DNA of 64,000 bases from Eledone cirrhosa (lineage: Eukaryota): positions 283,650,001 to 283,714,000 of the forward strand of contig OZ024741.1 in the NCBI GenBank assembly GCA_964016885.1, given 5' to 3'. The notes beneath the pieces are model-generated. The model was not told the origin of the DNA. It made no database searches and saw nothing but the letters and a program-made list of their open reading frames with translations. Shown one piece after another: positions 535 through 62,909 of the stretch. A program made the position numbers and the translations under genes. How positions within the stretch are numbered: the stretch's first letter is position 1; every line of letters starts with the position of its first letter.

Positions 535-630
535 ACCCCCTGAGAAGCTCGGCTATTCATATACCAGGATAAAAATTTTCATTTAGTCCAGAATTAGCCG
601 TCGAAACGGCTTGAGCTCAGCCGTCGGGGT
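535..630 (+). ncRNA. Hammerhead ribozyme-like motif (type I) with variant core CUGAGAA
   Basis: Stem I ACCCC(535-539)/GGGGT(626-630); core CTGAGAA; stem II CGGCTA/TAGCCG; GAAA 603-606; stem III ACGGCT-t-GAGCTC-AGCCGT; GTC cleavage triplet. Followed closely by (TA)n. Confidence 0.6.
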
Positions 631-642
631 CCTACTCGTTCC

Positions 643-914
643 TATATATATATATATATATATATATATATATATATATATATATATATATATATATATA
701 TATATATATATATATATATATATATATATATATATATATGTATATATATATATATATGTGTATACATATATATGTGTGTATATATATATATATATATATA
801 TATATATATATATATATATATATATATATATATGAGTGTATATATATATGTGTGTATATATATATATGTCTATATATATATATATATATATATGTCTATA
901 TATATATATATATA
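643..914. repeat. (TA)n microsatellite
   Basis: Direct reading. One of many long, partly degenerate (TA)n arrays (also about 4354-4392, 4615-4950, 5660-5780, 5919-6006, 6235-6980, 11210-11775, 13330-13525, 14025-14443, 18710-18950, 52000-52130, 53250-53570, 53870-53993, 58385-58490, 63068-63118). Confidence 0.98.
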
Positions 915-1140
915 TCATCATCATCATCATCATTTCATTTTACGTCCGCTTTTCCCTGCTTGCAAGGGTGGGACGGGAACTGATTTTGGCTTGATTTCTA
1001 CAGCTGGATGCCCTTCCTAACACCAACCTCATTTACAGAGAGTGCTGGGTGCTTTTTTGCCGTGGCACCTCCACAACCACTTTGCAGTGGAATGATATGG
1101 ACCCCAGTCCCTATCATCTCATTTCTACAGCTGAGTAAAC
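915..1140 (-). mobile_element. 5'-truncated SINE with RTE-like tail (same family as 51011-51342)
   Basis: Nearly identical to about 51011-51223; (GAT)n tail abuts (TA)n; cut off at 1140 by a short (TA)n and the PLE. Confidence 0.85.
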
Positions 1141-1151
1141 TATATATATAT

Positions 1152-58536: not shown

Positions 58537-58653
58537 AGGTAACAATTGTTTCTATAGTGTATGGGTTACCTATACCTCGCTATTTGAATAATATAAAAAT
58601 ATTATCATAAACCGAAGGTACACTGTAAGCAAACACACCATGTCGTCAGACCT
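58537..58653 (-). ncRNA. Hammerhead ribozyme with long stem II (inverted PLE-B copy)
   Basis: Reverse complement of 62793-62909 (one difference). Confidence 0.75.
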
Positions 58654-60115
58654 TTGTATTGGAATGATATGAAAATATTTTATGCACTAGATAAAAGAGA
58701 AAGAAGGAGGTAGGAAGAGAAGGGGAAGAGGGAAGTGAGTAAGGTGGAGGGAGTCCTAGGATTTAAGACTGTCAGACTAGTAGAGATTGTAAGGAGAGAA
58801 TGTTTTGGCAGCAGTTAGCTTAATGAGGTGTGTTAGGGTTGGCGGGGGAAGTAGATTCTTCTAGTGGTGTTGTTCGGACAAAATTTAGTTAAAGGGGGTC
58901 AAAGTGGTACAGAGTCACAGACAAGTTATTGGGGCTATTTCTAAAGGGGTCCAGAAAACAGTGTTTAGTACTATTATTATAGAAAGCCATATCTTGTGTA
59001 TAAACATATAAAACAGAAATTTGCAAACGGTGGTGTAAAAAGGTAACATTATATGCATTTAAAAAAAGAAAAAGTCGTTTTCAAACGATGGTTACAGTAT
59101 AGAGAACGTTCAATTTTGCTGTTCAAAAGTTTGTTTACCGACGTTAAAATGCAGTATATCTCCAAATTGCATAACTTGCAGAATCGATGATTTTGCTTAT
59201 ATGCAGGCACAGCTGCAATAATTTGCCAATCAAGGGAGAATGCTTGATTGTTCCTCCGGAGCTGCCAGGCTTTATCGGCGAGGGTTGTTACGGAGCGCAT
59301 TTTCTCGTGCCTGATCGAAGATCGATGTTGGTATAGGCGAGCCTTGAAAGAAGTTGCGGTACATCCGACGTAATACCATTTGTTGGTTCCGGAATTTATT
59401 GTACATCGGTAGACAATATTGCGTGCTAGGCACTGGTTATTCAGTGGGCACGTACCTGGTTTGGTGCAGTTACAATTATTTTTATGTTTTGCAGTAGAAT
59501 CCTGGATAGTTTGGTGGGGTTGTAGTTGCGTGTTAGTGCGTTGTATATTGCTATGCTGGTGCGCTGAGTCATTAGGGATGTACTTATTTAGTATTGCTGA
59601 GTTGAGTTTTTTAATTAGTTGTTCTATGTTAGGTGCAGTGGAGTATGAGAGTCTAATGGTGCGCGAGTTAAAGATTTTATAGTATTTATGTGAAGTTGTA
59701 AAGTGTTTGTTGATTAGTGTATAGAATTGTGAGATAATCTTAGTGCTAATAGAAGAATTGTACACGGGGTTATACCATATGTACTCTCGGTTATACCATA
59801 TGTACCTTCGGTTTATACCATATGTACCTTCGGTTTATGATAATATTTTTATATTATTCAAATAGCGAGGTATAGGTAACCCATACACTATAGAAACAAT
59901 TGTTACCTAATAAATTCTTTATACCCGCATTTCCATTTCATAAACTTCTTCTCCATATTTTCTCCGGATTTTAAAACACACTTTATTATACGTTGAGCAA
60001 TCTCTGACGTCGGTTGACTCCATCCAATGCAACTACTTAGTAACATTGGAATACAAATTTACTAATTCTTCACACTCCTTTACAGTCGAGCAACCTATAA
60101 ACCTACGTCTCTGAA

Positions 60116-62397
60116 ATGGAAAAACATCATTGTGGTATGTCCTTAAAAAACATACCCATTCAGGGTAAAAAAGAATACATTCTTGGTATGATACAAAGGA
60201 CCAACGAATTTATTCGGTGGATTAGATGGAGGGCCTTCCACTTCGATAGGAAAAGGATTACACAAACTTCCGACACCAACAACGATAAGTTTGGTTTCAA
60301 ATCCTACAAAAACCCACCCTCTAACCCTCTTTTGGATTCTTTCGAACAGGACTTAATGAAAATGATAACCGGAATCAAATTTACAAACGGAAGGAAAAAC
60401 GAACTGCAACGAGACATTAAAACTCTACTCGACAACCTAAGGAATACCAAAGGAATTATCATAAAGGCAGACAAAACATCGAATCTATACACCCTGGATG
60501 TAGAAACATATAATAATTTTATACGTAAGGAATTACATAGGAAGTACAAAAAAACAAACGCAACTACACTAACCAACATTAATAACGCAGCATGTGATAT
60601 TGTTAAGAAACTGAAAATTGACGACAGAACGGTACCCCTATCTCCAGCTACACCGACTTTTAATCTGAAGGACCATAAGGATAACTTCGATACTAACCCT
60701 AAAATTAGATTAATATGTCCTTCAAAGTCCGATATGGGTAGAATTAGCAAGTACATATTAGATCGTATTATCCCCAAGTTAAGGCTAAGGTAGATATTAA
60801 ATTATGGGGTAATACTCATCAGGCAATAAGATGGTTCAATAACATTAGGGACAAAAACAAATCTTCTTTTATTCAATTCGATATAGATGAATACTATTCC
60901 TCTATTTCACCCGAAACCCTGCATAAGGCCCTCTCTTTCGCTAAGACTAACTCGGACCTCACAAACGAGGAAATTAATATTATACTTGAAGCTAGACGCG
61001 CAGTAGTGCACTTTGAAAATAGTTATTGGGTCCGCAGAGATAGACCCTCGGAATTCGACATTACGATGGGTTCTAATGATTCGGCGGAGGTCACGGATCT
61101 GGTTGGGATCTATATAGCCCATAGACTCCAGAGCGAATTTACGGACCTCCACGGCGGAATATACCGCGACGATACACTTCTATTAGTCAAGAATATGAAC
61201 AAACAAAACCTAGAAAGGCGACGTAAAAATATTAGGAAACTTTTCTTAGAACTAGGGCTTAATATTATCTTCGAACACAATCTTAAGGTGGTCAACTTCT
61301 TGGATGTTACCTTCAACCTTAATAACGGTAATATAGAGCCATTTCACAAACTTAATGAAAATCTCAAGTACGTTAATGTAAAATCGAACCATCCCCATTC
61401 CATTATTAAATCTATCCCTAAAAATATATCCATAAGGATCTCCCGATTGTCGTCTAATTTGCAGACCTTCAACGAGCATGCTGAATATTATAATGACGCA
61501 CTTAGAAAAGCTGGTTACTGCGAGAAAATAGAATATCTAGACGATAACCACATAAGTACTATGAATAAAGCACATCTAAGTCGAACTAGTATTGCACCAC
61601 ACACACACATCAATAGGCATACTAATAGGTGCAAACCAGCAAATAGAGTCAGACGTAGAGAGTACATATGGTATAACCCCGTGTACAATTCTTCTATTAG
61701 CACTAAGATTATCTCACAATTCTATACACTAATCAACAAACACTTTACAACTTCACATAAATACTATAAAATCTTTAACTCGCGCACCATTAGACTCTCA
61801 TACTCCACTGCACCTAACATAGAACAACTAATTAAAAAACTCAACTCAACAATACTAAATAAGTACATCCCTAATGACTCAGCGCACCAGCATAGCAACA
61901 TACAACGCACTAACACGCAACTACAACCCCACCAAACTATCCAGGATTCTACTGCAAAACATAAAAATAATTGTAACTGCACCAAACCAGGTACGTGCCC
62001 ACTGAATAACCAGTGCCTAGCACGCAATATTGTCTACCGATGTATAATAAATTCCGGAACCAACAAATGGTATTACGTCGGATGTACCGCAACTTCTTTC
62101 AAGGCTCGCCTATACCAACATCGATCTTCGATCAGGCACGAGAAAATGCGCTCCGTAACAACCCTCGCCGATAAAGCCTGGCAGCTCCGGAGGAACAATC
62201 AAACATTCTCCCTTGATTGGCAAATTATTGCAGCTGTGCCTGCATATAAGCAAAATCATCGATTCTGCAAGTTATGCAATTTGGAGATATACTGCATTTT
62301 AACGTCGGTAAACAAACTTTTGAACAGCAAAATTGAACGTTCTCTATACTGTAACCATCGTTTGAAAACGACTTTTTCTTTTTTTAAATGCATATAA
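60116..62397 (+). CDS. PLE-B RT + GIY-YIG endonuclease (~760 aa), single frameshift near 60783
   Basis: SLKNIP, KADKTSNLY, LKDHK, RLICPSKS / KLWGNT..WF, QFDIDEYYSSI, ITMGS, YRDD, NFLDV, SNHP, WYNP, CNC-x5-C-x5-C, NIVY..YVG..FKARLYQH, CKLC. Confidence 0.92.
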
Positions 62398-62792
62398 TGT
62401 TACCTTTTTACACCACCGTTTGCAAATTTCTGTTTTATATGTTTATACACAAGATATGGCTTTTTATAATAATAGTACTAAACACTGTTTTCTGGACCCC
62501 TTTAGAAATAGCCCCAATAACTTGTCTGTGACTCTGTACCACTTTGATCCCCTTTAACTAAATTTTGTCCGAACAACACCACTAGAAGAATCTACTTCCC
62601 CCGCCAACCCTAACACGCCTCATTAAGCTAACTGCTGCCAAAACATTCTCTCCTTACAATCTCTACTAGTCTGACAGTCTTAAATCCTAGGACTCCCTCC
62701 ACCTTACTCACTTCCCTCTTCCCCTTCTCTTCCTACCTCCTTCTTTCTCTTTTATCTAGTGCATAAAATATTTTCATATCATTCCAATACAA

Positions 62793-62909
62793 AGGTCTGA
62801 CGACATGGTGTGTTTGCTTACAGTGTACCTTCGGTTTATGATAATATTTTTATATTATTCAAATAGCGAGGTATAGGTAACCCATAGACTATAGAAACAA
62901 TTGTTACCT
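62793..62909 (+). ncRNA. Hammerhead ribozyme with ~90-nt stem II in PLE-B 3' end
   Basis: AGGT-CTGACGA-c-ATGGTGTGT..TGTACCT..ATAATAT-tttt-ATATTAT..AGGTATA..ATA(G/C)ACTAT-a-GAAACAATTGTT-ACCT, then AATAAA. Confidence 0.75.

Follow-up and report, generated by a model that had tools for sequence, protein, structure and literature searches.

The stretch of DNA considered here, hereafter the window, comprises 64,000 nt of the genome of Eledone cirrhosa (contig OZ024741.1, positions 283,650,001 to 283,714,000); it is AT-rich and packed with TA arrays and retroelement fragments. Scattered along it are nine folds of the hammerhead ribozyme, designated below by first coordinate and strand (535+, 5366+, 13597-, 52946+, 54142-, 58023+, 58238-, 58537- and 62793+), each of them present where an initial annotation, made from the letters alone, had placed it. 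The reading that we consider probable is that the nine folds are type I hammerheads at the 3' ends of four coding families of Penelope-like elements (PLEs), denoted A, B, C and Y, and within three families of retrozymes, denoted F, Z and X, the latter likely having been put into (TA)n by the reverse transcriptase (RT) and endonuclease of PLEs.

Hammerhead folds and the elements that carry them

A descriptor that combines the motifs CUGANGA, GAAA and NUH with a self-complementary stem III and minimum lengths of 4 bp for stem I and 3 bp for stem II, whatever pair closes stem II, recovers seven of the nine folds (5366+, 52946+, 54142-, 58023+, 58238-, 58537- and 62793+), compared with none in 100 dinucleotide shuffles of the window in 1-kb blocks; together with the shuffles of the 600-kb genome sample described below, these controls rule out a chance origin of the folds. 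All nine had been called complete, which holds for these seven. The core CUGANGA ... GAAA ... NUH is present in eight of the nine, the exception being 535+, with the core CUGAGAA and an A at position 8 opposite C3 (a C3·A8 mismatch), and the type I layout, with three stems around the core and stem I at the open end, is decayed only in 13597-, a copy with two stem I substitutions (most other aligned copies of family Z have ACCUU/AAGGU or CCCUU/AAGGU). In two cases (54142-/58023+ and 58537-/62793+) a pair of folds comes from inverted copies of a single element, at 99% identity, and the nine folds therefore represent seven contexts, in line with the roughly seven unrelated ones recognized initially.

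Equally borne out are the bordering (TA)n arrays, a run of (TA)5 or longer lying 17-194 nt past every predicted cleavage site, the absence of the G10.1-C11.1 closing pair of stem II from seven of the nine folds (Table 1), and the enlargement of stem II in four contexts (A, Z, X and C; 55-95 nt). The further suggestion that standard descriptors miss this variant stands as far as Rfam is concerned, with no hammerhead among 113 matches at E ≤ 1 in the window. Closing pairs other than G-C are, however, already in print (PMC8557442; PMC3088659; PMC7229834), and they are not new because U·U closes 14 of the 26 Hydra rows in File S2 of Craig et al. (2021; PMC8557442), the others, as counted here, being G·U (4), U·C (1) and G-C (7), all headed 'canonical'; the U10.1-U11.1 mismatch was also described by Perreault (2011; PMC3088659).

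As judged from sequence, four of the seven contexts (A, B, C and Y) are the 3' ends of coding PLEs. The assignment of A, B and C to the Hydra clade, which agrees with the Hydra-type PLEs initially proposed for the window, is by motifs in translated frames (A read from locus L142): all three have DKT, CxCX5C, CxxC and CxH and have no CxxC inside the GIY-YIG domain. The N-terminal RWK motif takes the form RWR in C; the frames available for A and B lack the N-terminus and show no such motif. In longer copies of A the endonuclease stops about 1.1 kb upstream of the 3' end, and B and C each have a broken open reading frame (ORF) inside the window and an inverted 5'-truncated copy. Natural, intact Hydra ORFs are represented by frames of 778-784 amino acids. 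Family Y has a Hydra-like endonuclease on the same strand 1.8-3.5 kb upstream in 7 of 28 loci; a tandem retrozyme was considered for it and rejected, no unit repeat being found in the 28 loci. Given the upstream endonuclease and the lack of a tandem unit, Y is likely the long 3' untranslated region (UTR) of a coding PLE.

The remaining three contexts are, again from sequence, non-coding tandem repeat families, that is, retrozymes, with one type I hammerhead in each unit of 429-439 nt (F), 486 nt (Z) or 733 nt (X) and head-to-tail tandem arrangement in 8 of 20, 8 of 20 and 7 of 20 loci, respectively. Accordingly, the diverse non-coding passengers of the initial annotation are upheld for F, Z and X, whereas 535+ and the B and C pairs proved to be coding PLE ends, as 58238- likely is, leaving passengers in three of the seven contexts. 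The longest ATG-initiated ORF has 54 codons' worth of amino acids (aa) in X, 79 aa in Z and 50 aa in F, the F stretch overlapping an inversion, and no similarity to PLE proteins below E=0.06 was found in the units. Their predicted circular forms have minimum free energies well below those of 12-20 doublet shuffles per unit (X, -183 against -145±8; Z, -132 against -104±6; F, -135 against -93±6). Exact 22-mer matches in the genome are few (Z, 56; X, 20), which indicates that the window's own subfamilies of Z and X have few members and that diverged relatives make up the large numbers of candidates. Three contig sets of unknown kind cover X, most deeply near its 3' end; they have no bearing on expression. 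Derivation of F, Z or X from the PLE UTRs of the window was rejected for lack of a significant blastn match.

Table 1. Features of the window (closing, closing pair of stem II)
Feature	Coordinates	Strand	Details
Family A, 5'-truncated 3' end of a coding Hydra-clade PLE	1-642	+	runs past left edge; stops at TA array
Inverted partner of the family A copy	about 0.9 kb farther to the left		
Hammerhead A	535-630	+	C3·A8; closing G-C; stem II 56 nt; stem III 19 nt, near-palindromic; predicted cut after 625 (GUC)
Neptune-type PLE	1320-4355	+	RT and GIY-YIG; CX4CxxC linker; CxxC inside GIY-YIG; ends at (TA)29
Family F retrozyme, partial copy of the 429-439-nt non-coding tandem unit	5340-5658	+	long 3' end; left limit approximate
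Hammerhead F	5366-5408	+	closing U·U; stem II 14 nt; stem III ACUAGU; predicted cut after 5402
Family Z retrozyme, about one 486-nt non-coding unit	13527-14025	-	TA array on either side
Hammerhead Z	13597-13685	-	closing G-C; stem II 55 nt; stem III near-palindromic; two stem I substitutions
Family X retrozyme, partial tandem	52313-53247	+	733-nt unit and 202-nt 5'-truncated repeat, between TA arrays
Second hammerhead X, truncated	from 52313		GAAA, stem III, cut site and stem I 3' strand
Hammerhead X	52946-53067	+	closing U·U; stem II 95 nt, branched; stem III ACAAUUGU; predicted cut after 53063
Family B, 5'-truncated Hydra-clade PLE	53994-57704	-	RT-endonuclease ORF broken, two frames (55352-57704); 3' UTR ends at TA array
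Hammerhead B, in 3' pseudo-long terminal repeat (pseudo-LTR)	54142-54196	-	closing G·U; stem III AUAUAUAU
Inverted 5'-truncated copy of B 3' end	57674-58122	+	hammerhead 58023-58077, closing G·U; 99.6% to 54097-54545
Family Y, 240-nt 3' end, likely of a Hydra-type PLE	58143-58382	-	microsatellite-rich 3' UTR of 2-3.5 kb
Hammerhead Y	58238-58297	-	closing C·A
Inverted 5'-truncated copy of PLE C	58491-59788	-	short 3' end; hammerhead 58537-58653, closing C·A
Family C, Hydra-clade PLE	59823-63067	+	3' UTR with long tail ending at (TA)25
Family C, direct 5' pseudo-LTR	59823-60060	+	truncated inside stem II
Family C, broken ORF	60101-62397	+	two frames
Hammerhead C	62793-62909	+	closing C·A; stem II 90 nt; stem III ACAAUUGU; predicted cut after 62905

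Marks of insertion into TA arrays

In all three retrozyme families the copies stop at fixed 3' sites next to (TA)n and are truncated to variable extents at the 5' end; in addition, F and Z have inverted copies and F alternative tails. In the genome-wide sampling, which covered A, C, F, X, Y and Z (the inverted copies and TA array of B are known from the window), (TA)4 is found no farther than 130 nt from the 3' end in 20 of 20 X, 19 of 20 Z, 89 of 90 A, 30 of 30 C and 17 of 20 Y loci, against a background of 19%. Head-to-head inverted copies are seen in F (11/20), Z (5/20), A (36/90) and C (3/30) and are absent from X (0/20) and Y (0/20), the loci spanning only 1.5 kb each side and some A loci being two views of one insertion; a second sample gave 10 of 21 insertions for Z. 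Alternative 3' ends, the 'tail' of PLEs, divide the copies of A into 36 long, 29 short and 6 other and those of C into 23 near +52 and 10 near +160, and the non-coding family F likewise has two, with 11 and 8 copies. The 3' ends of A, C, F, X and Z each coincide with a TA-like motif of 3-8 nt inside the element, which suggests priming by microhomology and makes the exact breakpoints unreadable.

For copies selected through a motif that lies downstream of the cut site, a survey of 5' ends places 25 of 31 ends of Z upstream of that site, with five copies spanning two or more cut sites and one end within 1 nt of it; 14 of 19 X copies extend across the cut site and none ends there. Cleavage as the event that sets the 5' end of the inserts is thereby rejected, there being no pile-up at the cut site (1/31 and 0/19), and the seven Z ends between -12 and +9 are equally well explained by short products combined with TA microhomology. 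As copies are continuous across the scissile bond, the RT template must have been an uncut multimer or a re-ligated circle, and insertion through the cut site agrees with the internal start and both-strand extension reported by Frangieh (2024; PMC11167929). The retrozyme copies are dispersed over many chromosomes.

Several other features of the window may be noted. A short segment between TA arrays (52130-52280) recurs beside TA arrays in four sampled loci (L004, L011, L018 and L135) and is likely the end of another TA-targeting family. Where the inverted and direct copies of PLE C meet (59768-59838) there are three tandem copies of 21-22 nt, and at this junction the ORF and stem II have ATATGTACCTTCGGTTTAT-like sequence in common, likely as a result of template jumps. 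Perfect inverted repeats at 44555-44648 (around (TA)14) and 24776-24909 may be fold-back insertions or miniature inverted-repeat transposable elements. The window also contains remnants of long interspersed elements (7070-11209 on the minus strand and 12169-18044), one with an endonuclease, an RT and a glutamine-rich upstream ORF, several of these fragments being what we take to be RTE-like; two dispersed short repeat families, likely short interspersed elements (926-1141 and 51009-51223; 24445-30156, 46990-48072 and 53570-53660); and a tRNA-like match of 34.8 bits (51276-51333, minus strand).

Abundance, the palindromic stem III and the C3·A8 core of family A

A search on the lines envisaged in the initial annotation, with any closing pair and a shuffled control, yielded 26 strict folds in sixty 10-kb stretches taken at round coordinates (600 kb), with none in each of four shuffles, and additionally one minimal fold and three folds with variant cores. 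The same descriptor finds six folds in the window, for which resampling gives P(>=6)=0.12; the notion that the window houses an unusually dense community, or is a special hotspot, is thus abandoned. Extrapolation gives about one fold per 23 kb, or roughly 130,000 in the 3.0-Gb assembly, and, if the window is typical, these folds, about three quarters of them without G10.1-C11.1, would lie outside the Rfam models; the closing pairs of the 26 sampled folds are G-C (7), U·U (7), U-A (5), A-U (4), G·U (2) and C·A (1).

When pairing of stem III is not required in the search, 18 of 22 folds are perfectly self-complementary between A15.1 and U16.1 and the other four have one mismatch or G·U in stem III, with no matches in 10 shuffles; the (near-)palindromic stem III suited to dimers is in this respect confirmed. 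Five X-like sequences keep the core and the stems while the palindrome is changed on both sides, from ACAAUUGU to ACGAUCGU to ACGGCCGU, the two-sided change occupying three cells among the X sister families. The centre of a palindrome is unable to pair within one hairpin, and its covariation therefore points to pairing between two molecules. In cofolding, a stem III duplex forms in all eight folds tested, and the minimum resembles a double hammerhead for A, Y and X.

The most unusual feature of the window, which escaped the initial annotation, is the family-wide C3·A8 core represented by 535+. Exact 22-mers of family A cores occur 1,081 times with C3·A8, 363 times with U3-A8 and 3 times with C3-G8, reversed controls giving 0, and these genome-wide counts rule out a one-off mutant copy; the alternative parsing of CUGAGAA as a deletion of N7 plus a bulge is disfavoured because the sister lineage UUGAGAA fixes the register. 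In a tree of 48 of the 73 fetched A copies, 14 of the 15 U3-A8 copies form one clade (100/98), and in a longer alignment of 27 copies the C3·A8 and U3-A8 groups are split on one branch, both sets having been chosen for sufficient length. The C3·A8 copies fall into several supported sub-lineages, comparable in age (mean distances to the group majority of 4.5% and 5.0%), which implies that C3·A8 masters went on producing copies. Midpoint trees nest U3-A8 within C3·A8, the direction of change being unrooted as no outgroup was found. Within the C3·A8 group, and in that part of the fold which the search pattern leaves free, variants common to at least four copies fall mostly in the distal stem II region, a clustering that hints at constraint on the scaffold. 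The G8A change strongly lowers hammerhead cleavage. The spread of family A, for the most part with a C3·A8 core, makes it likely that PLE insertion does not require fast cleavage in every round.

Two observations on cores and folds may be added. Four more clusters have a U3-A8 core (L137:+2931, L146:+3820, L194:-6896 and L157:-6819, positions on the strand scanned), all closed by G10.1-C11.1, a pair that variant cores may require. Hammerhead A contains the 8-mer AGCCGTCG in two places (586-616), and a possible 6-bp hairpin there would mask GAAA in the monomer fold, with GAAA freed in the dimer fold.

A proposed cycle, its rivals and known systems

The cycle that we propose would begin with tandem or read-through RNA. 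Two hammerheads in such RNA would pair through the self-complementary stem III to form a double hammerhead, predicted to cut and to free unit RNAs capable of circularization; the palindromes and their covariation are observed, whereas cutting and circles are predictions. A PLE protein would then nick (TA)n and prime RT at one or two fixed internal sites, short TA-like motifs 20-255 nt downstream of the cut site (the fixed 3' ends are observed, the enzyme is putative); for the retrozymes the expected starts are +76 in Z, +184 in X and about +200 and +255 in F. Reverse transcription would read through the cut site, at times over more than two units and with variable stops, and priming on both strands would account for the head-to-head inverted copies; the structures attributed to this last step are those seen in the genome.

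A number of results weigh against this picture. The link of Y to a coding element comprises 7 of 28 loci at 27-47% protein identity, and the TA adjacency of F (20/20) is confounded by a TA-like stretch within the unit. No head-to-head inverted X copy was found in the 20 loci, or again in the 20 of a second, overlapping set, and X and Z lack alternative 3' ends. A structure other than the double hammerhead is the cofold minimum of F, B and C (and of the decayed Z copy), and in the seven intact folds the hammerhead costs the monomer 0.1-12 kcal/mol relative to its minimum. Stem covariation across copies, which the initial annotation had anticipated, is seen as the two-sided palindrome change of the X-like set, but the test is a weak one, with only five related sequences and a score reached by 9 of 500 shuffles.

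The source of the enzymes is the point at which another (TA)n-targeting element could replace the Hydra PLEs, for instance the Neptune-type PLE of the window, which has RT and GIY-YIG and itself ends at (TA)29. At the DNA level the retrozyme units do not significantly resemble the UTRs of A, B, C, Y or the Neptune element, and thus point to no partner PLE; that no retrozyme has significant sequence in common with a Hydra UTR lends such a substitution some weight. The best match (E=0.17) is a 12-nt stretch of GAAA and stem III common to X and C. The presence of GAAA, stem III and cut site in both X and C points the other way, as do the Hydra-style features of the retrozyme hammerheads, namely the palindromic stem III and U·U closing as in File S2 of Craig et al. 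(2021). Moreover, no CUGANGA core was found in the 1.4-kb 3' UTR of the Neptune-type copy, and among 43 hammerhead clusters (288 matches over 1.3 Mb of sequence, a set biased to the families searched for) the endonuclease repeatedly found upstream is Hydra-type, Neptune-type occurring in only three scattered cases. We infer that the Hydra PLEs, not the Neptune-type PLE, are the source, and regard a different (TA)n-targeting enzyme as distinctly improbable. Still less credible, and scarcely to be entertained, is the origin of F, Z and X as satellites from PLE ends spread by DNA-level amplification: tandem arrays reach about three units, and local amplification is discussed by Li, Clavereau and Pollet (2026; 10.64898/2026.07.22.740005), but dispersal over many chromosomes, fixed 3' sites in (TA)n, variable 5' truncation and, in F and Z, head-to-head inversions are at odds with it.

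Whether the hammerheads still cut is a separate matter. That in all families cleavage in vivo has ceased and the fold is kept as a protein-binding or dimerization element seems unlikely, if less so than the two foregoing proposals. It would accommodate the expansion of family A in several C3·A8 sub-lineages, the 5' ends without a pile-up at the cut site, the insertion in vitro that does not need cleavage (Frangieh, 2024) and the cleavage of only one of nine dimers (Li et al., 2026). Conversely, most of the 43 clusters retain CUGANGA or the compensated U3-A8 while the stems vary, one lineage of A has U3-A8 in a well-delimited clade, and the U·U-closed retrozymes of the axolotl cleave, dimers better (PMC7229834). 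Returning to the proposed cycle, a broader synthesis is possible rather than probable and is offered tentatively: family A, with more than 1,000 recent copies, the whole scaffold kept, C3-G8 broken and a U3-A8 sister lineage, might have C3·A8 as a new working core, dependent on dimers or on PLE protein, or else the fold might be a non-cutting element of retrotransposition, while the same Hydra machinery would copy unrelated non-coding retrozymes into (TA)n, with circular RNA as the template and internal starts primed by microhomology.

Most single ingredients, such as Hydra PLEs and retrozymes without LTRs, are already in print; new here are the PLE footprint on retrozymes, the very long stem II and the sister lineages C3·A8 and U3-A8. 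In titles and abstract openings, no cephalopod retrozymes, retrozyme PLE footprint or family-wide C3·A8 core were found, although Lünse et al. (2017) may cover some variants, and no description of a 90-95-nt stem II was met. PLE mobilization of retrozymes was proposed by Cervera and de la Peña (2014; PMC4209133) and Li et al. (2026), earlier from co-occurrence and pseudo-LTR similarity; here the insertions themselves carry PLE marks. The C3·A8 and U3-A8 sister lineages are a natural mutant pair for what hammerheads do for PLEs, and family A (>1,000 copies) would allow a direct test of whether the ribozyme must cut at all, so that both questions, retrozyme mobilization and the hammerhead role in PLEs, are testable within one genome.

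In comparison with the Hydra clade as presented in the sections of Craig et al. (2021) drawn on here, the PLEs of the window agree in the C-terminal GIY-YIG without CCHH, DKT, the CxCX5C linker, (TA)n insertion (a preference given there for Hydra-1_Obim of Octopus bimaculoides), inverted 5'-truncated copies, an optional tail and a hammerhead close to the 3' end whose stem III is palindromic and whose closing pair is mostly not G-C; the same authors also describe Chlamys elements that are non-autonomous and have pseudo-LTRs. They differ in the length of the 3' UTR (A, about 1.1 kb; B, about 1.3 kb; Y, 2-3.5 kb), in tails of about 80 and 110 nt as against 30-40, in the family-wide C3·A8 core, in a stem II that measures 56-90 nt where File S2 has short hairpins in every Hydra row, and in the C·A closing pair, which in that file is found only in a Chara PLE.

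With the minimal PLE hammerheads, the passages of Cervera and de la Peña (2014) and Perreault (2011) being the basis, the folds share a short stem I, the palindromic helix III thought to work in dimers, U10.1-U11.1 and U3-A8, the covariant reported together with palindromic helix III in the former. G10.1-C11.1 is called 'highly conserved' in both papers and is present here in only 7 of the 26 sampled folds, and the unpaired family-level C3·A8 core does not occur in those passages.

Like the non-LTR animal retrozymes (PMC7229834; Li et al., 2026), F, Z and X have non-coding tandem units of low GC with one type I hammerhead each and strongly self-paired predicted circles, known here as predictions only; U·U closing recurs in axolotl HHR_Amex2, which has U10.1-U11.1 and whose cleavage improves in the dimer (Cervera and de la Peña, 2020; PMC7229834). 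The present insertions show PLE marks that the passages drawn on do not mention, namely fixed 3' ends at (TA)n, inverted copies and alternative tails; stem II reaches 95 nt, and F, Z and X have no similarity to a partner PLE pseudo-LTR, which 24 of 57 Xenopus families have (Li et al., 2026).

The closest parallel to the insertion marks is the Poseidon element PAc of Anolis (Frangieh, 2024), in which G8C and C3G lose activity, cleavage is unnecessary in vitro, RT starts internally at two sites, giving the tail, and both target strands are primed and extended. Uncut RNA is the template of PAc, and likewise the copies described here are continuous across the cut site; the start sites of PAc are not homologous to the target, whereas here the 3' end of every family falls on a TA-like motif of 3-8 nt.

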